Source: an uncultured Actinomycetes bacterium (GTDB taxonomy: Bacteria > Actinomycetota > UBA4738 > HRBIN12). Taken from it: a stretch of 64,000 nt of DNA. The translations under genes and the position numbers were made by a program. The first letter of the stretch is position 1. Every line of letters starts with the position of its first letter. This document shows, piece after piece, positions 4,435 to 64,000 of this stretch. The stretch is from contig OY969099.1 in NCBI GenBank assembly GCA_963697875.1, positions 2,793,234 to 2,857,233 of the forward strand, given 5' to 3'. Below the pieces are notes generated by a model. The model did not search any database. It was given only the letters and a program-made list of their open reading frames with translations, and was not told the origin of the DNA.

Positions 4435-5142
4435 GTGCGAAGCGTCTTGCTCGGGTTCATCATGATGGTGGCGGCAGCGAGTTGCGCCGCAGCTGATCTA
4501 CAACCCCTGTCGCGACCCGAAGCGGCAGTGCAGATCCGGCCGACGGCGTCACCCTACGTCCATGTGGACGCCGGGGATGTTCACGCTCTCGTGCCGCACG
4601 GATGGCAAGCGGTCCTCGCAACCGGTGACGGGGTCCGAGAGGGGTTCGTGGCCTCACCTAGCCCGACCCGGTGGCGGGCATTCGACGGCGAGACCTACGG
4701 CATGGCCGCCACCTGGATCGACGCGACCCGGGTGGGGGTGCCGAGCGACTTCTACTACCTGGCCGCGACCGGGCCCCTCCTCTCGCGGCTGACATCCACC
4801 CCCGGGTGCACGATGCAGGAGCAGCGGGTCTTCGCGAACCACGTCCCCTCCTACGTCGCATCGGGCTCGGCCGGATCCGCGGGCGACTACGTGGCGCGGG
4901 GCGAAGGCGTCTGCACGAGCGCGAACCATCCGGCGACGCGATGGTCGTACTTCGTGGCCGCGCCGGGCTTCGGGCCGGCGCGGAGCATCGGCATCCCGAG
5001 CTCGGGGCTGTACCTGGTCGTCGCGATGACGCGGGAGTCGCCGAGAGCCCACCGTATCCTCGACCGGTTGCTCGGAAGCATCCGGTTCGGCACGGCCGGG
5101 ATCGTCGACTTCACACACGCCGTCCGTCACCCGACCGTCTGA
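4435..5142 (+). CDS. hypothetical secreted protein with an N-terminal signal peptide
   Basis: MRSVLLGFIMMVAAASCAAADL is a signal-peptide-like N-terminus. No recognisable catalytic motif is present. The composition is ordinary and non-repetitive, and the ORF fills an otherwise empty 0.7 kb gap. Confidence 0.45.
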   Translation: MRSVLLGFIMMVAAASCAAADLQPLSRPEAAVQIRPTASPYVHVDAGDVHALVPHGWQAVLATGDGVREGFVASPSPTRWRAFDGETYGMAATWIDATRVGVPSDFYYLAATGPLLSRLTSTPGCTMQEQRVFANHVPSYVASGSAGSAGDYVARGEGVCTSANHPATRWSYFVAAPGFGPARSIGIPSSGLYLVVAMTRESPRAHRILDRLLGSIRFGTAGIVDFTHAVRHPTV

Positions 5143-5149
5143 GCCGGGT

Positions 5150-6259
5150 TCAGCGCGGGTTGCGATCCACGAACGGCGGACGCACGACCGTCGCCGCCCC
5201 ACGCCTTCCCCGGATGTCCACCTCAACCTCGGCCCCGAGCGCGGCGATGTCGGCCGGCCACAGGTACCCGAGCCCGATCCCCGTCTGCAGCAGCGGGCTG
5301 AAGGTCTCGCTCGTCACCTCGCCGATCAGCTGGTCGGCCACGAGGACCGGGCAGTGGGCGCGAGGGATGTGTCGCCGGTCGTGCATCCGCAGACCGCGGA
5401 GCAGGCTCGGCAGACCCTCGTCGCGCTGGCGCATCAGGGCGTCACGACCGCGGAAGTCGCCCTTCTCGAACGACACGGCCCAGCTCAGGCCGGCTTCCAG
5501 CGCGGTCGAGGATTCGAACAGGTCCTGCCCGTAGAGCGGATAGCCCATCTCGAGCCGGAGGATGTCTCTGGCAGCTAGCGCACAGGGCCGTCCGTCGAAC
5601 GCCGACGCCGCGGTCATCAGGTCGCGCCAGAGGTCGACCGCGACGTCCTGGTACGTGAACAGCTCGTACCCGAGCTCCCCCGTATAGCCCGACCGCGTGA
5701 CGATCACCGGTCGGCGGCGGTACTCCGACTCCTCGCATTGCATGAACCCGAGGTCGGAGGACTCAGGGAACAGCGCGGACACGACATGGGCCGAGTCCGG
5801 CCCCTGGACCGCGAGGAAGCACCAGTCCTGGTGGTACATGAGATGGACGGGCGCGTCGGTGTCAGCGTCGGCGAGGAGCTGAAGCACGCGTTGCGTGTTC
5901 GACGCGTTGGGGACCACGAAGAAGCGCTCGTCGCCGAGGCGGTAGACGATCAGGTCCTCGATCACGCCGCCGCCCTCGTTCAGCACGAGGTTGTACTGCG
6001 CTTCCCCCACCGCGACCGTGCCGACGTCGTTCGTGATCAACCCCTGCAGCAGCCCGAGCGCGCCGGAACCGACGACCTCCACCTTTCCCAGATGGGTCAG
6101 ATCGAACAAGCCGACGCGCTCGCGGACGGCTCGGTGCTCGGCGAGCGCGCCCTCGTACTCGATCGGCATGAGCCAGCCCGCGAACGCGCCCAGCTTCGCG
6201 CCGAGCGAGCGGTGTTCCGCCTCCAGCGGCGTGCGCCTGAGCTCAACCGGCTCGTCCAT
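5150..6259 (-). CDS. gcvT: glycine cleavage system T protein (aminomethyltransferase)
   Basis: RRTPLEAEHRSLGAKLGAFAGWLMPIEYEGALAEHRAVRERVGLFDLTHLGKVEV...YTGELGYELF are GcvT hallmarks. Three in-frame ATGs occur at 6277, 6268 and 6259. The 6259 start (MDEPVEL) has AGGA 8 nt upstream. Confidence 0.85.
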   Translation of the reverse strand: MDEPVELRRTPLEAEHRSLGAKLGAFAGWLMPIEYEGALAEHRAVRERVGLFDLTHLGKVEVVGSGALGLLQGLITNDVGTVAVGEAQYNLVLNEGGGVIEDLIVYRLGDERFFVVPNASNTQRVLQLLADADTDAPVHLMYHQDWCFLAVQGPDSAHVVSALFPESSDLGFMQCEESEYRRRPVIVTRSGYTGELGYELFTYQDVAVDLWRDLMTAASAFDGRPCALAARDILRLEMGYPLYGQDLFESSTALEAGLSWAVSFEKGDFRGRDALMRQRDEGLPSLLRGLRMHDRRHIPRAHCPVLVADQLIGEVTSETFSPLLQTGIGLGYLWPADIAALGAEVEVDIRGRRGAATVVRPPFVDRNPR

Positions 6260-20497: not shown

Positions 20498-21484
20498 ATG
20501 GTCTCCGTGGGAGAACGCGACCACAATCCGTCCAAGCGGCGGCTGCACCTGCCGATCCTCGGCGTCACGAACGGACCCGGCGACGCACGCGGGGTCAACG
20601 TGCCCGGGGAGCGGAAGCCTCCCTGGTTGAAGGTGCGCCTCGCGAGCGGTCCGAACTACTCGGCCCTGAAGGGCCTGATGCGCGGCAAGGCGCTACACAC
20701 CGTGTGTGAAGAGGCGATGTGCCCGAACATCGGCGAGTGCTGGGAGGAGCGTGAGGCCACGTTCCTGCTGCTCGGTTCGAAGTGCACCCGCCGGTGTGGC
20801 TTCTGCGACGTGATGACGGCCAAGCCCGACCCGGTCGACGAGGACGAGCCGCGCCGGATCGCCGAGGCCGTCGCCGAGATGGGGCTGCGGCACGTGGTCC
20901 TGACCGGCGTTGCCCGCGACGACCTGCCCGACGGAGGCGCGCGGATCTGGGCGGCTGCGATCCGCGCATGCAGGGACGCGGTTGCGGGGGTCGCCGTGGA
21001 GGTGCTGCCGTCCGATCTCAAGGGCGGCGAGGACGACGTTGCCACGGTGCTCGACGCCGAGCCCGACGTGTTCGCGCACAACCTCGAGACCGTGCGGCGG
21101 CTTCACGACCGGATCCGGCCCGCGTTCGGCTATGACCGATCTCTTGACGTCCTGCGCTTCGCGAAGCGTCACCGCCCGGGACAGGTTACGAAGTCGAACC
21201 TGATCCTGGGGATGGGCGAGCGCCCCGATGAGGTCGCCGACGCCATGCGCGACGTCGCGGACGCGGACGTCGACATCCTCACGATGGGTCAGTATCTGCA
21301 GCCCACCCCGTACCACCTGCCGGTCGATCGGTGGGTGACGCCCGATGAGTTCGCCGAGCACACGCGTGTGGGCGAAGGCCTCGGCATCGCCCACGTGGAG
21401 GCGGGACCGCTCGTGCGATCGAGCTACCACGCCGGCCGGCAGCTGAGGCGCGCCGTCGAAGCGGGCGCCGTCGCGGCCGGGTAG
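20498..21484 (+). CDS. lipA: lipoyl synthase LipA (radical SAM)
   Basis: CEEAMCPNIGECW is the auxiliary cluster motif. CTRRCGFCDV is the radical-SAM CxxxCxxC. ...RSSYHAG is the C-terminal motif. The ORF is in frame within track ORF 20351..21484, with ATG at 20498. Confidence 0.9.
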   Translation: MVSVGERDHNPSKRRLHLPILGVTNGPGDARGVNVPGERKPPWLKVRLASGPNYSALKGLMRGKALHTVCEEAMCPNIGECWEEREATFLLLGSKCTRRCGFCDVMTAKPDPVDEDEPRRIAEAVAEMGLRHVVLTGVARDDLPDGGARIWAAAIRACRDAVAGVAVEVLPSDLKGGEDDVATVLDAEPDVFAHNLETVRRLHDRIRPAFGYDRSLDVLRFAKRHRPGQVTKSNLILGMGERPDEVADAMRDVADADVDILTMGQYLQPTPYHLPVDRWVTPDEFAEHTRVGEGLGIAHVEAGPLVRSSYHAGRQLRRAVEAGAVAAG

Positions 21485-22044: not shown

Positions 22045-22082
22045 CGACGAGAGCGTAGCGGCAGGGGGTGTGGAGGAGCCGG

Positions 22083-22493
22083 CCTGTAAGCCGGATCCTG
22101 TGCGCGGGGCTCGCGCCCCGCCGGCGACCATCTCTCTCGGCTGCGCGCTCACGCGCCCGCCGCGTCGCGGTTCGCCCGCGCCGTGCGGCCTACCCGGGAG
22201 CTCGAACGGGCCGCCCTCCTCGGTGGGGCTACCGCGTCGCTGCGTGAGCCCCGCCGAACGCTCCCTGCTTGGCCTTGCTCCGGGTGGGGGTTGCCGAGCC
22301 GCGCCGGTCGCCCGACGCGCTGGTGAGCTCTTACCTCACCGTTGCACCCTTGCCCGCTCGCGCGGGCGGTCTGTTCTCTGTGGCCCTGTCCGCGAGGTCA
22401 CCCCCGCCTGGCTCTCGCCAGCACCCTGCCCTTCGGAGTCCGGACTTTCCTCGACCGCGCGAACGCGGCCGCGGCCGCCCGGCCGGCTCCTCC
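22083..22493 (-). ncRNA. rnpB: RNase P RNA (bacterial type A), rnpB
   Basis: The reverse complement reads GGAGCCGGCCGGGCGGCC...GGUCGAGGAAAGUCCGGACUCCGAAGGGCAGGGUGCUGGCGAGAGCCAGG...ACAGAGAACAGACCGCCCG...GGUAAGAGCUCACCAGCG...ACAGGAUCCGGCUUACAGGCCGGCUCC. It contains the universal GAAAGUCCGG (P4 region). The 5' GAGCCGGCC pairs with the 3' GGCCGGCUC to form P1. The ends are approximate to within about 10 nt. Confidence 0.85.
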
Positions 22494-39510: not shown

Positions 39511-39959
39511 CCGGGCTTCTCCTCTTGTCCCTTGGAGAATCTGCCGTGGAGCTTGCCTTCCGGGTGGTGCTCGATCTCCTCTTGGCCCTCCGCGAACTCA
39601 CCCTCGTGTACTTCCTCGTGCCCGGGCAGATCCTCGTGCTGTCCCCGAGCGAAGTCGGGCTGCACCAGCCGTTCGGGATCGTCCGGCAGGTCCTCCTGCC
39701 CGCGAGCGAAGTCCGGGCGGGCGGTCGACTGCGGCTCGTCGCCGGGGACCGGCGGGACCACGGGCTCGACGTCGTTCGGATCGACCTCCACGTCCATCGC
39801 TACAACGATCTCTTCCTCCACAACCATCTCTTCGTCGACAGGGGACTCGTCGGTTGGCTCGCGCGGGTCCATCGTCGTGCCTCCTCCCGGGGCGGCCTCG
39901 TTGCCGACCTCTAAGGTGAAGCTTCCCGGGGCGGAGCCGCGGCAAACGACGACCGCCAT
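39507..39959 (-). CDS. acidic, His-rich repeat protein (hypothetical)
   Basis: About 150 aa with pI well below 5. It carries an imperfect tandem motif: PDFARGQEDLPDDPERLVQ / PDFARGQHEDLPGHEEVHEG / EFAEGQEEIEHHPEGKLHGRFSKGQEEKPG. The corresponding approximate DNA repeats are visible. The true start may be Met 29 (about 39875). Confidence 0.5.
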   Translation of the reverse strand: MAVVVCRGSAPGSFTLEVGNEAAPGGGTTMDPREPTDESPVDEEMVVEEEIVVAMDVEVDPNDVEPVVPPVPGDEPQSTARPDFARGQEDLPDDPERLVQPDFARGQHEDLPGHEEVHEGEFAEGQEEIEHHPEGKLHGRFSKGQEEKPG

Positions 39960-39989
39960 CCCGGTGATGGACCCGAGATCTCTGCGACG

Positions 39990-41078
39990 TCAGGAGCCGC
40001 CGAGGCGGAACGCCCGCGGCGCGCGCGTCCGGTCGCCCGACCGATCCGACGACCAGGGCGCAGAGGGCGCGGCCACGATGTTGGCGAGCGCGAGCAAGAC
40101 CGTGTCGTAGTTCACGCGCCAGCCCGCGAAGTCGCGCCACGCCTGATCCCGGTCGGTCCTCAGCCGAACGCCCTCCGCCTCGAGCGCGTCGACGACCGCC
40201 TGCCACTCGTCGCGCGAGACCGAGATCGGGTCGTCGGGCCCCGGATCGGGATCGAACGGCACCTTGAAGAACCGCGCGATCCTGCGCAGGCACAGGTACC
40301 CGGCACGCAGGCAGAACTCCGCCTGCACGTCCCTGGGCCAGTCCACCGTCGAGAGGGTGAACGCGGCGCTGTCGAGCACGGCCCCCGCCGCCGTCACCCA
40401 GTTGTGCTGCGGCTGCGGCGATCGGAAGAACACGAGCGCCGGCAACGAGCTATGGGTCTCCTCCACGTCGACGAACCAGCGCTCCCACTCCATCCACACG
40501 GCGCCGAGCTCGCCCATGCGCTCGAGCGCCCAATGCCGCCAGACCATCTCGCGTGCCGATGGCGGCGATCCCGCGCGCACCTCGAGAGCGGTGACGCCGA
40601 CCTCCCGGCGCGAGTAGGCCGAGTAGATCGCCGGCAGGTACGTGATCAGCAGCGCGAGCAGGAAGAGCCCCATCGCCGCTTCCGTGAACGTGAGGATCGT
40701 GACCGGGAGCCCGGAGGGGTGGGCAAAGCCGAGCGTGAACAGCGAGGAGCCGGAGAGGGTGAAGGCATCGCGCAGCGACAGGCCCTCGACGCCGACGAAT
40801 ACGAGCGTGTACCCGGCGAGCATCAGGATCAGCCACACGGCCAGCGTCACCGTGAGGCTGATCGGAGCGTACGAGGCAAGCCGACGGTCGCGGCGCTCGT
40901 AGTCGAGCCCTCGTGGCGCGATCACCAGGAAGACCCGTCGCATCGTGAGGAAGACCCATCGAGTGATCGAGGACGCCGATGCGCGCGGTAGGACCACCGT
41001 CTTGATCGCCGAGCCCAGGGTCGCCAAGACGATGACAAGGCCCGCCGCCGTGGCGAGCACGCGTAGGAAGGACTCCAT
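39990..41078 (-). CDS. hypothetical membrane protein with a pore-loop-like segment (possible ion-channel family)
   Basis: The start is at MESFLRVLATAAGLVIVLATLG (ATG 41078). Three to four TM helices are present. Between two helices lies LRDAFTLSGSSLFTLGFAHPSGLP, resembling a pore helix and selectivity loop (compare TxGYG). A cytoplasmic roughly 180-aa C-terminal domain follows. The rest of the 683-aa track ORF is antisense to the protease gene. Confidence 0.5.
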   Translation of the reverse strand: MESFLRVLATAAGLVIVLATLGSAIKTVVLPRASASSITRWVFLTMRRVFLVIAPRGLDYERRDRRLASYAPISLTVTLAVWLILMLAGYTLVFVGVEGLSLRDAFTLSGSSLFTLGFAHPSGLPVTILTFTEAAMGLFLLALLITYLPAIYSAYSRREVGVTALEVRAGSPPSAREMVWRHWALERMGELGAVWMEWERWFVDVEETHSSLPALVFFRSPQPQHNWVTAAGAVLDSAAFTLSTVDWPRDVQAEFCLRAGYLCLRRIARFFKVPFDPDPGPDDPISVSRDEWQAVVDALEAEGVRLRTDRDQAWRDFAGWRVNYDTVLLALANIVAAPSAPWSSDRSGDRTRAPRAFRLGGS

Positions 41079-41249
41079 TGGGGCGGATGCTAGTGGGAAC
41101 GCCCGTGTCGAGCGCCTCGCGACCGGCAAGGCCCGCCGCCTCTCGCACCAGGAAGCGATCGAAGGCCACCAAGGCTCGTCCCTTGCGGCCCCGAACAGCC
41201 CGCGGATAGGCTGAACAACCCCACCCAGGAAGACTCCCAAGGAGGATCG

Positions 41250-42023
41250 ATGAGGCGTTTCCTCGTGATCGGCGCAGCCACGTTGTTGTGTGCCCTGGCC
41301 CCCGGATCGGCCGGCGCCATCACGGGCGGACAGAAGGACATACAGAACCGGTATCCGTTCGTCGGCCTGCTCGCCTTCTACGATGCCGGGGGCGATTACC
41401 TGCATCGATGCTCCGGCACCCTCATCTCGCCGACGGTGGTGCTCACCGCGGCTCACTGCACGGAGGGAACCGCCACGGCATACGTCTATTTCTCGGTCGA
41501 CGTGCCCGCTGACTTCAGGGAGAACCCCTCGGGCGTCCTCGGCACGACGTACACCGATCCGAACTTCAACCCCAACACGCTGACCAACGACGTGGGGGTC
41601 GTGGTCCTCGAGCAGGCAGTCAGTCGCAGCGAGTACCCGGTCCTTGCGCCGATGGGGTTCCTCAGCGATCTGAAGGCTCAGGGCGAGATCAAGGACGACA
41701 CCTTCGTGAACGTCGGCTACGGCCTCTTGGCAGGATGGCCCCCCTCGACCCTGGTGGACAACGAGAGCCGCTGGTTCTCCACCTCTCCCTATCGAGGGCT
41801 GACGCACCAGAAGCTGCACCTGCTCCAGAACCCCGAAGCGACGGGCCAGGGCGGGACGTGTTTCGGCGACTCGGGTGGTCCGCACTTCTGGGAGGACACG
41901 TTGGTCATCGTGTCCGTGACGAGCTGGGGCGACGCGATCTGCCGCTCCAACGACATGACCCAGCGGGTCGACATCGGATCGGTGCTGGATTGGCTGGAGC
42001 AGTTCGGGCCCACGCCGGGCTGA
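41250..42023 (+). CDS. secreted trypsin-like serine protease (S1 family)
   Basis: A signal peptide is present. The catalytic triad is TAAHC (His), NDVGVV (Asp) and GDSGGP (Ser). An AAGGAGGA SD lies 6 nt upstream. Confidence 0.85.
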   Translation: MRRFLVIGAATLLCALAPGSAGAITGGQKDIQNRYPFVGLLAFYDAGGDYLHRCSGTLISPTVVLTAAHCTEGTATAYVYFSVDVPADFRENPSGVLGTTYTDPNFNPNTLTNDVGVVVLEQAVSRSEYPVLAPMGFLSDLKAQGEIKDDTFVNVGYGLLAGWPPSTLVDNESRWFSTSPYRGLTHQKLHLLQNPEATGQGGTCFGDSGGPHFWEDTLVIVSVTSWGDAICRSNDMTQRVDIGSVLDWLEQFGPTPG

Positions 42024-42102
42024 GAAGAGCTCGCTTCCCACGCTCGGGACACCCGAACCGAACGCGGCTCATGCGGATGACCGATCGGCTGGTGAAGGCC
42101 CC

Positions 42103-43239
42103 TTGACGGTCTCGTCGTTGATCGACCGCCACCAATACCCAACGCTGCAGAAGTGCGTCTATCTCAACCAGGCTTCCCTGGGCCTGATCGCGAACCCGGC
42201 CGTCGACGCTATCCACGATCTGCTCGAGCGAGTCGTGCGCCACGGCAATCTCTACATGTCCGACGAGGACGAGACGGGCTTCCTCGACAACCTGCGTGAG
42301 CGCGCGGCCCGGTTGTTGTCGGTAGGCGACGGCAGGATCGCGATCCTGAACAGCGCGAGCGAGCTGTTGGGCCAGGCACCCTTCCTGCTGGCGCCTCGAC
42401 AGGGCTCCAAGGTGATCGCCGTGGCTACGGACTTCCCGGCGATCACACGGCCCTGGCTGCGTCTGGAAGAGCGTGGTGAGTGCCGCGTCGAGTTCGTCGA
42501 GGATGGCCTCGAGTCCGACCTGACGGCCGATCTCATCGCCCGGATCGATGATCGCACGTCGGTGGTCGCCGTCGGGTGGGTCCAATACGCGACGGGGACT
42601 GTGGTCGATGTTCCCCGGCTACGAGCGGCCACCGAGGAGGCCGGCGTCAGGCTCGTCCTCGACGCCACGCAGGGGGCCGGCGCGATGAGGTGCGACGGGG
42701 GCACCTGGCGCGCCGACCTCATGGTGTCCAGCGGGTACAAGTGGCTCGGCGGCCCCGGCGGGGTGGCGATCGGGGCGCTCGCTCCCGATCTCATCGACCA
42801 GATACCGCCGCTGCCGGGGTGGATGGGCGCCCCCTCCCCCTTCGCGTTCGACGCCACTCGGATCGCTCAGGCCGAAGGTGCCAGGCGGTTCACGCAGTCG
42901 ACGATGTCCTACCTCTCGGTGGCCGGCTTGACCACGGCGATCGATCAGCTCCTGGCGGTCGGCCTGGACCGCGTCGAGCAGCACGCGACACGACTGCACG
43001 AGCTCTTGCTCCGTTCGGTCGAGGACCGCGGCTGGCTGCCGTTCCGCCGTCCCACCGACCCCGCATCCGCGCCGCACATCGTCTCGCTCGGCCGTCCGGG
43101 CACGGAGTCCGCGGACGTCCAGCTGCGGCTGCGCGAAGCGGGGATCGTATGCAGCCTTCGCGGAGACCGGCTGCGCGTGTCCTTGTCGCCCTACAACGAC
43201 GAGGAGGACATCGCCGCTCTTGCGACGGGACTCGCATAG
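42103..43239 (+). CDS. PLP-dependent aminotransferase class V (cysteine desulfurase / isopenicillin-N-epimerase-like)
   Basis: The protein has a fold-type I pattern. MVSSGYKWLGGPGG is a PLP-Lys region. Confidence 0.7.
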   Translation: MTVSSLIDRHQYPTLQKCVYLNQASLGLIANPAVDAIHDLLERVVRHGNLYMSDEDETGFLDNLRERAARLLSVGDGRIAILNSASELLGQAPFLLAPRQGSKVIAVATDFPAITRPWLRLEERGECRVEFVEDGLESDLTADLIARIDDRTSVVAVGWVQYATGTVVDVPRLRAATEEAGVRLVLDATQGAGAMRCDGGTWRADLMVSSGYKWLGGPGGVAIGALAPDLIDQIPPLPGWMGAPSPFAFDATRIAQAEGARRFTQSTMSYLSVAGLTTAIDQLLAVGLDRVEQHATRLHELLLRSVEDRGWLPFRRPTDPASAPHIVSLGRPGTESADVQLRLREAGIVCSLRGDRLRVSLSPYNDEEDIAALATGLA

Positions 43240-43520
43240 AGCGTCCGGCGACGCCGGATGCGCTCGGGCGATCAGGACACCGGACTCCGGGGGCTCGGAC
43301 GGCAAGCTCTCAGGCCGTCGGTCGATAGGTCGCGAGGATGACTCCGCCATAGCCGGGTCGTCGCCCTTGGCCCACCCACCATGGGCAAAGCCTCCGCGCG
43401 TGTCTTCGTTGGCACGCGCCGGGCTTTGCATGACCCCATCGAGGCTGACGTGGTTGAGGACAACGAGTTCCACGATCGATGGTGCCAGAGCGTTCCTTCT
43501 CGCGCCAAGCGCCACTCAGG

Positions 43521-44060
43521 CTAGGTCCGCAGAATGAGCCGCCCAGGCGGCGCAAGCCTCGCTACTGTCGTGCCCGGGATCAGCGCGAGCGTGCCAACCG
43601 CCGCGGCGAGACGGCCGGGACCGATCCAACCGGGTCGCTCGGACGTGGTGCGACGTACGAAACGCACCAATCGGAGACGCATCACGACATGCGTGAAGAA
43701 GTAGAGCGACAGCCCGCCACACAACGTCACGGCCGGGACGGTCGCCAGCGGGTCGCGGACATCGTGCATCGCGATCTTCAAGCCCAGCGCGAACAGGACG
43801 ATCCCCGCGATCATCGGCATGTGCAGGTAGCTGTAATGGTCCCGAGAGAGGCGCGCACGGGTCACGCCGCTCGTCTCCGATAGCTGGCGTTCGGCCAGCA
43901 CGGCGTAGACGTCGAAGTACGCCCACCAGAGCGCGGCGCTCACGGCGAGACCGAGGACCGCGTAAGGACGATAAAGGAGCTGTGCGAGGCCGACCTTGCG
44001 CCGAAGACGTAGACCGGTCGTCGACGCCCGCACCTGAATCCCCTCTCTCAGCGGAGCCAC
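43521..44060 (-). pseudogene. truncated low-temperature-requirement A (LtrA)-family membrane protein gene; only the C-terminal roughly 180-aa half is present
   Basis: WWAYFDVYAV...RDHYSYLHMPMIAGIVLFALGLK resembles the LtrA C-terminal half. No room for the N-terminal half exists before the tRNA remnant and the epimerase gene. Confidence 0.4.
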
Positions 44061-44074
44061 AGGTCAAACGCAGT

Positions 44075-44113
44075 GAGCGCTGAGGGGCTCGAACCCCCGA
44101 CCCTCTGCGTGAG
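44075..44113 (-). tRNA. tRNA 3'-end remnant (T-arm plus 3' acceptor strand), probably an att-site scar; no intact tRNA
   Basis: The reverse complement reads ...CACGCAGAGGGTC GGGGG TTCGAGC CCCCT CAGCGCT C A. GGTTCGAGCCCC is a canonical T-stem-loop followed by a 7-nt acceptor strand. The 5' half cannot be folded into a cloverleaf. Confidence 0.4.
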
Positions 44114-44141
44114 CGGCCTCCTCGGCGGAGTACTCGCTATG

Positions 44142-45086
44142 TCATTCGCCGCGAAACCAGGTGACCGTGCGGCGGATCCCCTCGCGGATCGGGACGCGGG
44201 GCTCGTAGCCGAGGAGCTCCCCGGCGAGCGAGATGTCGGCCTCCGAGCGCAGGATGTCGCCCTCGCGGGGCGGCGTGAACCTCGGATCCGGGGAGGCCCC
44301 GCACTCGCCCGCGATCAGCTCGAGCAGCGCCTTCACCGAGGTCGGTGTGGCGCCCCCGCCGACGTTGAAGGCCCGTCCGAACGCTTGCTCGTCCGCGCGG
44401 ATCGCGAGCAGGTTCGCGTCGACGACGTCGTCGACGTACGTGAAGTCGCGCGACTGCGACCCGTCGCCGTGGATCACCGGCCGTTCGCTCGTCAGACAGG
44501 CCACGATGAACCGCGGGACCACGGCGGCATACTCGCTCGCCGGGTCCTGCCCCGGCCCGTAGACGTTGAAGTAGCGCAGCGAGATCGTCGGGACGCGGTA
44601 GGCGGTCCACGCGGTCATCGCGTACAGCTCGGCCGACGCCTTGGCCGCCGCGTACGGCGAGCGCGGCAACACCGGCATCGTCTCCCGCAGCGGGAACTCG
44701 TCCTGATCGCCGTAGACCGAGGAGGACGACGCCTCTACCACGACGGCGCCCGCGTCGCGCGCCGCGAGCATCACGTTGAGGCTTCCGCGCAGGTTCACGT
44801 CGGTGACGAGGCCCGGTTCGCGGATCGAGAAGGGGACCGAGCGTATCGCAGCCTGGTGCAGGATCGCGTCGCAGCCGCGCGCGGCGTCGGCGACCGCCGC
44901 CTCGTCGCGCACGTCCGCTTCGACGAACCGGACCTCCGGCACGTCCCGGAGCGCCTCGAGTGATCCGGCGGACAGGTCGTCGAGGCCCACCACCTGCACG
45001 CCGTCGGCGACCAGACGGCGGCACAGGTGGGCGCCGACGAACCCGGCCGCCCCCGTCACCAGCATCCGTCGCACGTCTCGATCCAT
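44142..45086 (-). CDS. NAD-dependent sugar epimerase/dehydratase (UDP-glucose 4-epimerase family)
   Basis: MLVTGAAGFVGAHLCRRL is a Rossmann GxxGxxG. SSSSVYGD is present. YAAAKAS is the catalytic YxxxK. The start is Met 91 of track ORF 44142..45356. Confidence 0.85.
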   Translation of the reverse strand: MDRDVRRMLVTGAAGFVGAHLCRRLVADGVQVVGLDDLSAGSLEALRDVPEVRFVEADVRDEAAVADAARGCDAILHQAAIRSVPFSIREPGLVTDVNLRGSLNVMLAARDAGAVVVEASSSSVYGDQDEFPLRETMPVLPRSPYAAAKASAELYAMTAWTAYRVPTISLRYFNVYGPGQDPASEYAAVVPRFIVACLTSERPVIHGDGSQSRDFTYVDDVVDANLLAIRADEQAFGRAFNVGGGATPTSVKALLELIAGECGASPDPRFTPPREGDILRSEADISLAGELLGYEPRVPIREGIRRTVTWFRGE

Positions 45087-63363: not shown

Positions 63364-64000
63364 TCAGCCGTCGCCTTCACGCATCCCGCCGTCAAACGAG
63401 TGTGGGCGTCTCGCTCCTCCTGTATGCCGCGCGACCACCACGAAACCTCTTCACCCAAGACGTCGAACTCGACCTGGAACCCCTTCTCGCCCCAAACCTC
63501 GGCGGCGGAGGCATAGTCCGGTCGGGCCTTGCCGCGGCCGAACTGCACGATCTTCAATGGCCGCGGTGTGTCGCCGAGGACCTCCGGCAGGGAGTGATCG
63601 AGACTCTGGAGGAGGACCCGCCGAACGGGGTATCCATGCACGTCGACGAGACCGCGCCTGTCTAGCTCGGTAGCCGCGTCGGACCCACTCGACCGGTCAC
63701 GCGTGTCGCCAGCGAGACTTGCGAACCGCAGAGCTCGCTTCGCCTCCAGCAAGTAGCTCTCTGACGTCATGACGGGCGACCACAGCACCAAGGGGGCTCG
63801 AGGATGCTCGGAGGCGACGGCGGCAGCCACGTAACCGCCAAGACGGCTTCCGACGAAGCACAGCTGCTTCGCGTTGAACCGCTCCCGCATCAGTTGGATG
63901 ACTGTGCAAGCGTCGTGGGTCATCGTGGCAAACGTCATCTGCTGGGGATCCCCCCAGCTATGTCCTATACCCCGGTAATGGAGGCGTGCGGTCGCGACAC
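63321..64000 (-). CDS. alpha/beta-hydrolase fold protein, paralog of the previous; partial, as the N-terminus lies beyond the window
   Basis: The frame is open to the window edge: ...LHYRGIGHSWGDPQQMTFATM...LCFVGSRLGGYVAAAVA... shows the same block order as the neighbouring hydrolase. Track ORF 63321..63938 begins at an internal Met. Confidence 0.6.
   Translation of the reverse strand, partial: VATARLHYRGIGHSWGDPQQMTFATMTHDACTVIQLMRERFNAKQLCFVGSRLGGYVAAAVASEHPRAPLVLWSPVMTSESYLLEAKRALRFASLAGDTRDRSSGSDAATELDRRGLVDVHGYPVRRVLLQSLDHSLPEVLGDTPRPLKIVQFGRGKARPDYASAAEVWGEKGFQVEFDVLGEEVSWWSRGIQEERDAHTRLTAGCVKATADWILGGLRRLSHKE

Follow-up and report, generated by a model that had tools for sequence, protein, structure and literature searches.

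The class-V aminotransferase gene and the NAD-dependent sugar epimerase gene lie convergently in the window (the whole 64-kb stretch of DNA that was analysed, with a base composition of ~70% G+C), and there is no intact gene across the ~900 nt that separate their stop codons. Both flanking genes are conserved. The epimerase is the first gene of a polysaccharide (glycan) cluster, with its stop codon at positions 44142-44144, and the aminotransferase is the gene to which the tRNA-Val fragments of relatives are anchored. The slot between them holds a tRNA 3' fragment, an ltrA stump and a dihydrofolate reductase (DHFR)-family stump, which are mutually unrelated and all on the minus strand (Table 1). 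An independent assembly (Logan ERR11718636, L005) was 100% identical over 39709-44590, and the slot junction is therefore not an assembly artefact. Convincing terminal inverted repeats or target duplications were not found at the slot edges. The first-pass annotation of this DNA had described the site as a recombination scar; that description holds, with three gene stumps now recognised, including the DHFR-family one that had been missed.

Table 1. Coordinates of features in the window and of related features in other loci (L numbers denote loci)
Feature	Position	Strand	Basis or remark
Bacterial RNase P RNA, class A	22071-22490	-	180.9 bits; in the window, no other Rfam family reaches its gathering threshold
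Class-V aminotransferase, conserved left flank	42103..43239	+	Pfam Aminotran_5; orthologs 81-89% identical
Variable slot	43257..44140	.	884 nt without counterpart in the closest relative, L096; contains three remnants
DHFR-family N-terminal stump, ~35 codons	43363..43467	-	phmmer against PDB
ltrA internal fragment	43563..43961	-	Pfam LtrA, 2.9e-24; tblastn limits; alignment A1
TGACCTGTGG motif	44057..44066	-	6 nt past the tRNA fragment
tRNA-Val-type 3' fragment, 36 nt	44073..44108	-	sequence; profile E 8.7e-11; unique in the window
NAD-dependent sugar epimerase, conserved right flank	44142..45077	-	Pfam Epimerase, 7e-62; 91% identical ortholog P0243 in L096
L009/L093 fragment	~6.8 kb downstream of aminotransferase		
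L011 fragments, two	7.4 and 9.6 kb downstream of aminotransferase		
L094/L095 fragment	3.7 kb downstream of aminotransferase		second copy at 7.4 kb in L094
~190-nt unit	L094 14836-15030, 18538-18705; L009 17919-18110; L011 20778-20945		arm plus tRNA-Val from anticodon arm to 3' end
tRNA-Val(UAC) 3' part with tyrosine integrase, IMG/VR	L099 1680-2959; L100 1890-3668; L101 355-1482; L012 5726-7530		

The largest of the three remnants falls within an open reading frame (43521-44060, minus strand) that the source annotation carries as a 170-aa protein. Its translation matched the Pfam family LtrA (PF06772) at 86.4 bits against a cut-off of 31.9, and the match covered only profile positions 213-327 of 356. 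The limits of homology, set by tblastn with five homologs, run from 43961 to 43563 and enclose ~133 codons, corresponding to about residues 219-350 of a ~385-aa protein; ~215 N-terminal and ~40 C-terminal residues are absent, and tblastn found no further piece of LtrA in the window. The GC3 of the open reading frame is 0.80, compared with 0.83-0.95 for those that pass the coding filter (GC3 > 0.80). The annotated 170-aa "LtrA" is a pseudogene stump. It had previously been taken for a half-length gene, and is instead the internal third of one, cut at both ends.

Loci L006 and L007, which carry the closest LtrA homologs, were considered as syntenic counterparts and rejected: their contexts are non-syntenic and contain no tRNA. 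The full-length ltrA of L006 (9618-10786) is called there as two overlapping open reading frames (128 and 261 aa). The split is due to a frameshift or to misassembly of the long-read metagenome; artefacts of the same sort may account for many of the short 'LtrA' entries in the protein collection.

The DHFR-family stump is unannotated and sits within a spurious 298-aa open reading frame. Residues 17-51 of its 72-aa translation aligned with residues 4-38 of the 203-residue chain 8jsv_A, a 'Dihydrofolate reductase family protein' (E 1.9e-7); the match falls short of the whole ~200-aa domain of the family (RibD_C-like), and no Pfam or NCBIfam match was obtained for the translation.

The third remnant is of tRNA origin. 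Read on the minus strand from 44108 to 44073, it is GAGGGTC GGGGG TTCGAGC CCCTC AGCGCTC A C, i.e., a variable loop, a T arm (GGGGG TTCGAGC CCCTC), the 3' acceptor strand AGCGCTC and a discriminator A followed by C. The block (GCAGRGGGTCGGGGGTTCGAGCCCCTCAGCGCTCAC) would correspond to positions 39-74 of an intact tRNA-Val, and GGGTCGGGGGTTCGAGCCCCTCAGCGCTCA to the 3' end of such a gene. The 5' side, GCAGA GGGTC, is either the 3' strand of an anticodon stem or variable loop, and a possible anticodon-loop trace, CTCAC, could stretch the fragment to about 44113. The first-pass annotation had recognised a tRNA 3' remnant here, and both the reading of its parts and the profile match described below bear this out; the T stem, however, is not the "perfect" GGGGG/CCCCT then reported, but GGGGG/CCCTC with one G-U pair. 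Upstream of the variable loop the bases cannot be paired into an anticodon arm, and the fragment has no 5' acceptor strand with which to complete a minihelix. A CGCTCAC heptamer occurs twice on the minus strand, directly upstream of the tRNA block (44103-44115) and at its 3' end (44069-44080, AGCGCTCAC); the repetition may be the trace of a second, nearly wholly deleted repeat copy, or chance.

That the window lacks an intact tRNA had been reported from reading the sequence, and ARAGORN likewise returned no tRNA gene, and hence no complete cloverleaf, in the 64 kb. Across the window Rfam recognised no tRNA above its gathering threshold, and around the site none even at E<=10. The bare GGTTCGANNCC motif is not significant alone (3 found, 1.3 expected). 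The fragment's 30-mer, in contrast, is unique in the window at <=3 mismatches and was matched by none of 100 shuffled sequences, and a 36-nt nhmmer profile built from related fragments scored the window copy with E 8.7e-11; the fragment is therefore far beyond chance. No partner repeat was found in the window at <=3 mismatches, by direct-repeat finding or with the nhmmer profile. The fragment lies 29-33 nt from the epimerase stop codon, in agreement with the 29 nt to the first glycan gene given earlier, and ~13 nt from the GTG of the open reading frame that contains the ltrA piece. The 14-nt spacing to LtrA that had been noted thus applies to the start codon of that frame, and not to the homology itself, which begins ~110 nt from the fragment.

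The fragment is near-identical to the 3' part of a tRNA, from the anticodon/T-loop region to the 3' end, as expected of a displaced fragment, and the boundary of similarity falls in the anticodon loop or stem. It matched tRNA-Val(UAC)-type att-like fragments at 30-33 of 36 positions and intact tRNA-Lys at 32 of 36. The best match, at 33 of 36, was to a viral att-int module (L101), in which the anticodon stem is CCTGC/GCAGG, compared with GCAGA in the window.

The surroundings of the aminotransferase were compared in five other lineages, four of them reached via aminotransferase orthologs (81-89% identity) taken from long contigs, and the fifth, L096, via an epimerase ortholog. Three of the five carry tRNA-Val 3' fragments downstream of the aminotransferase and on the opposite strand to it (ENA loci L011, ERZ25039492 contig_6204; L094, ERZ25039464 contig_214; and L009, ERZ25039556 contig_7189). 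All the fragments, the window copy included, lie on the same relative strand and 0.8-10 kb downstream of the aminotransferase. None was found in any 10-kb upstream flank, in L006 or L007 (41 kb), or elsewhere in the window, and there is none near the aminotransferase in L096 and none within 10 kb in L098. Searching metagenomes with the aminotransferase recovered 80 loci, of which most were short or distant; they contained no fragments, and the tRNAs in them were all unrelated. None of the relatives' fragments is part of an intact tRNA. Because no relative has an intact tRNA-Val within 10 kb, the hot-spot tRNA itself was never seen. In the 10 kb to each side of the aminotransferase, the first three lineages compared have no other gene in common with the window. 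The stretch that leads from the aminotransferase to the first fragment varies among lineages, and no common downstream flank was found among the fragments.

On the other side of the tRNA block the relatives resemble one another. Four copies (both in L094, the one in L009 and the L011 copy at 20778-20945) have ~150 nt in common directly upstream of the block, containing GCGTAAC twice, (R)GTACTCA three to four times at roughly 10-nt spacing, and CTCTGACCTGCGGGTTCGTC. This stretch has the layout of an att arm with arm-type sites. Arm and tRNA-Val segment together form a unit of ~190 nt. Two repeats stand in the same orientation in each of L094 (3.7 kb apart, around one 1132-aa signalling gene) and L011 (2.2 kb apart, around two cargo genes). 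The content between repeats is strain-specific, and no recombinase was found between the paired copies in either locus.

A 234-aa ammonium-transporter (Amt) open reading frame in L011 (17978-18682) runs into the other tRNA fragment of that locus. The transporter is 405 aa long (372 aa in L093) directly upstream of the aminotransferase in L009, L010 and L093, and the L011 frame is another gene stump abutting an att-like fragment.

These paired units allow a reading in which the arm plus tRNA-Val segments are, in this uncultured Actinomycetota group, recombination sites that bound integrase-less cassettes of one or two genes stacked downstream of the conserved aminotransferase, making up an integron-like array on a tRNA-derived att site, served in trans by a tyrosine integrase from elsewhere, and in which the window scar is a dead cassette boundary. 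This was considered distinctly unlikely.

The arrangement of the fragments relative to genes was also examined. Six of the seven genomic copies follow a stop codon on their own strand at a distance of 30-120 nt, a position that would suit a tRNA-like RNA element with a function, for example as a 3'-UTR structure or as the terminator of the epimerase operon. However, the predicted fold of the fragment region is not better than that of shuffled sequences (z = 0.75), no terminator-like or promoter feature was found at the fragment, no Rfam family was recognised and, as described above, the 5' acceptor strand is missing; the absence of covariation is also consistent with refutation. A fortuitous match is ruled out by the profile E value, and it is extremely improbable that the fragment is either chance or a functional RNA.

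The ~150-nt arm of the relatives is absent from the window. The TGACCTGTGG motif next to the fragment occurs three times in the window against 0.43 expected. The related heptamer TGACCYG/CRGGTCA accompanies 7 of 11 att-like sites at distances of up to 120-160 nt, with a density of ~3 per kb compared with a background of 0.3 per kb, an enrichment of about ten-fold. The orientation of the window motif is unlike that in the relatives, and the idea that it is a relic of a recombinase-binding site is only suggestive. A single GAGTACTCC upstream of the fragment looks like the arm repeat of the relatives; it was given no weight because this motif class is not enriched in the window (12 found, 15 expected).

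The distribution of the sequence beyond these lineages was examined with an exact 22-mer bearing the window's T variant, scanned against one genome per species. Four loci were recovered. Three were alphaproteobacterial (two of them intact tRNA-Lys(UUU) genes, the third a displaced fragment), and the fourth was a fragment in the Actinomycetota MAG L002 (palsa_555), in which the anticodon arm, CTTACAA, identifies tRNA-Val(UAC). The exact 22-mer missed most relatives because the window has a T in the acceptor strand (AGCGCTCA) where they have a C (AGCGCCCA). The L002 fragment (5838-5891) has the window's T variant, and L002 and the window have no sequence in common.

Two of the recovered contigs have further features. 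In L002 an IS30-family element (4528-5753) with 24-nt inverted repeats, flanked by AAGTCCGTGCC repeats, lies 85 nt from the fragment. The Rhizobiaceae contig JBHIWX010000036.1 holds an intact tRNA-Lys(UUU) together with its displaced 3' fragment (L001 4745-4791 and L003 7483-7558), and this pair, recovered only through the shared 22-mer, is a textbook case of an island bounded by a tRNA, in an organism that is unrelated.

Four IMG/VR viral contigs combine the same tRNA-Val(UAC) 3' part, without the tRNA 5' half, with a PF00589 tyrosine integrase 60-870 nt away. Three of them have 65-70% GC (L099, L100 and L101), and the fourth, L012, is low-GC. These are att-int modules of (pro)phages. A scan of viral contigs for the relatives' arm and anticodon-arm variant gave no matches. 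The earlier suggestion that the remnant is of the kind left by site-specific integration thus gains support from the near-identical tRNA-Val(UAC) fragments in three lineages, from their arms and from the viral integrases.

It had further been proposed that the scar marks the point at which the glycan cluster, or something formerly next to it, arrived as an island, and the closest relative bears directly on this. L096 (ERZ25039490 contig_20918), found via the closest epimerase ortholog (91% identity), contains both epimerase and aminotransferase orthologs on one contig. By blastn, L096 7053-8649 corresponds to window 45743-44141 at 89.7% identity and L096 10724-11866 to window 43256-42110 at 85.6%, and further blocks match the next cluster genes and genes at 31-35 kb of the window. 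The synteny takes in the epimerase, three neighbouring small genes, the end of the DegT gene and the aminotransferase at 86-90% nucleotide identity. It stops 1 nt past the epimerase stop codon and 17 nt past the aminotransferase stop codon, and what lies between in L096 is 2074 nt unrelated to the window (a 65-aa open reading frame, a methyltransferase and a TM198-type membrane protein), with no tRNA fragment. The break in synteny is 33 nt from the window fragment; the difference is confined to the 884-nt slot, with conservation on the glycan side. As the L096 flanks are syntenic up to the slot, the adjacency of cluster and aminotransferase predates the split of the two lineages, and the comparison therefore identifies the slot, not the glycan cluster, as the variable unit. 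The more distant lineages have no cluster near the aminotransferase, but they have no conserved flanks either.

Genes in the 20 kb on the right-hand side of the scar encode the epimerase, a DegT aminotransferase, a WecA-type transferase and several GT4 glycosyltransferases, together with acetyltransferases, a deacetylase, a Wzy_C protein, a sulfotransferase and hydrolases. G+C content reaches 73-77% between 47 and 56 kb and drops to 61-66% between 58 and 64 kb, where GT4, sulfotransferase and hydrolase genes are found, compared with 68-72% over most of the remaining window. Given this unevenness, the distal part of the cluster may be a later acquisition, unrelated to the scar. Pfam scans of most open reading frames detected neither PF00589 nor any other recombinase at 44-64 kb or in the slot, and no second repeat or excisionase was found in the window. 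In L096 the glycan cluster is cut inside the DegT gene (4695-5527), leaving a 72-aa stump that adjoins an rve-domain transposase fragment; the cluster itself is therefore being remodelled by IS activity.

The fragment could still be the displaced repeat (attR) of a large polysaccharide-cluster island, with the intact tRNA-Val and the integrase beyond position 64000. Its orientation is suitable, as a tRNA on the minus strand places the island at higher coordinates, on the glycan side, which is also the side of the fragment corresponding to the one on which the relatives carry their arm; the cluster is, as noted, compositionally mosaic, and a cluster of this kind is missing from the 10 kb around the aminotransferase in four other lineages. 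Against this, the proximal cluster genes of L096 have diverged about as far as the aminotransferase has (90% and 86% nucleotide identity, respectively) and are adjacent to it with no tRNA fragment, and synteny breaks at the epimerase stop codon rather than at the att core. The 20 kb to the right contain no arm, integrase or repeat, and glycosyltransferase and sulfatase genes are found to the left of the slot as well. A displaced island end is accordingly unlikely. The proposal that the scar is the arrival point of a glycan island is not supported: the L096 synteny confines the variability to the slot, and those 20 kb are also free of an intact tRNA. Today the scar is inert, and it is not a demonstrable boundary of the glycan cluster.

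A simpler history would need no integration at all: the fragment would be the stump of a resident tRNA-Val whose 5' half was lost in the deletions that trimmed ltrA and the DHFR-family gene. Three adjacent genes are indeed truncated, the region is plastic and prone to deletion, and the window copy has no element-derived arm. As that copy lacks both the arm and the 5' strand of the anticodon stem, nothing in the window itself tells a duplicated att site apart from a resident tRNA that was cut short. In the relatives, every copy at the equivalent locus is a duplicate of the att type, and its 5' side is not tRNA sequence. The similarity boundary at the anticodon loop or stem is the usual crossover region (PMC4383910), and a genome that lost a tRNA-Val unreplaced would have to carry another copy elsewhere. 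That the fragment is a decayed resident tRNA was judged unlikely.

The explanation that we regard as probable is that the fragment is a decayed att-type remnant of tyrosine-integrase elements that target tRNA-Val, and that it lies in a small replaceable slot beside two pseudogene stumps. In this lineage, the DNA downstream of the aminotransferase would be a zone of plasticity into which elements of this kind have inserted repeatedly. An element of this type would have left behind a displaced 3' portion of tRNA-Val, or its own copy of that portion, and would then have been lost from the window; later deletions would have taken the arm sequences and trimmed ltrA and the DHFR-family gene. The end state would be the 884-nt slot of three stumps between conserved convergent genes. 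We infer that the window copy arose by integration and not by the decay of a tRNA resident there, and the order of the deletions and the side that had held the element are inferred in the same way. Several observations weigh against an att remnant: the window has no integrase, excisionase or partner repeat, and L096 and L098 are free of fragments. The variable DNA between aminotransferase and fragment is, in addition, not predicted by a simple one-sided array.

Actinomycete integrative elements and phages, of the pSAM2 and SLP1 types, use tRNA 3' ends as attB. The present loci resemble these in their high-GC host, in an att block that runs from the anticodon loop to the 3' end and, among the relatives, in the arm-type repeats beside the core; unlike them, the genomic loci examined have no replication, transfer or integrase genes.

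The elements that target tRNA genes recombine within the segment from the anticodon loop to the 3' end (PMC4383910, Islander), and because the recombination falls within this segment, each integration leaves a direct repeat of it. Integration splits the tRNA gene and restores it from element sequence, and the displaced fragment comes to lie at the far end (PMC4383910). As in the islands catalogued by Islander, the window has a 3' tRNA segment, from the anticodon region to the discriminator and without a 5' half, at a break in synteny, and the sequence of this segment is paired with PF00589 integrases in viral contigs. Unlike those islands, the window shows no regenerated tRNA, integrase or partner repeat, and the arm has been lost. 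Only 884 nt of pseudogene debris differ from the nearest relative, so there is no island left to delimit.

Arrays of decayed elements offer a second comparison. In Dehalococcoides, tandem islands with ssrA repeats occupy a high-plasticity region downstream of ssrA (PMC3146451), and streptococcal elements decay to integrase-less forms (CIME) and then undergo accretion (PMC5704250). L011 and L094 are similar to both in having two repeats in the same orientation, one or two cargo genes and no integrase. They differ from the Dehalococcoides arrays in their target, tRNA-Val in place of ssrA; in addition, only the viral contigs indicate the class of integrase, and the anchoring intact gene was not reached in the loci compared; the window itself has a single degraded copy.

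The kind of feature described here is well known. The present instance is new but inert, and it does not challenge the understanding of tRNA-targeted integration. The finding is mainly one of annotation, in that the 170-aa "LtrA" is a pseudogene stump and a second, unannotated stump lies beside it, and the tRNA-like piece is no evidence for a recently acquired polysaccharide cluster. The region downstream of the aminotransferase is a recurrent tRNA-Val-linked plasticity zone in this soil and permafrost group of Actinomycetota, and the conserved att unit could be used for mapping integrative elements in such genomes.
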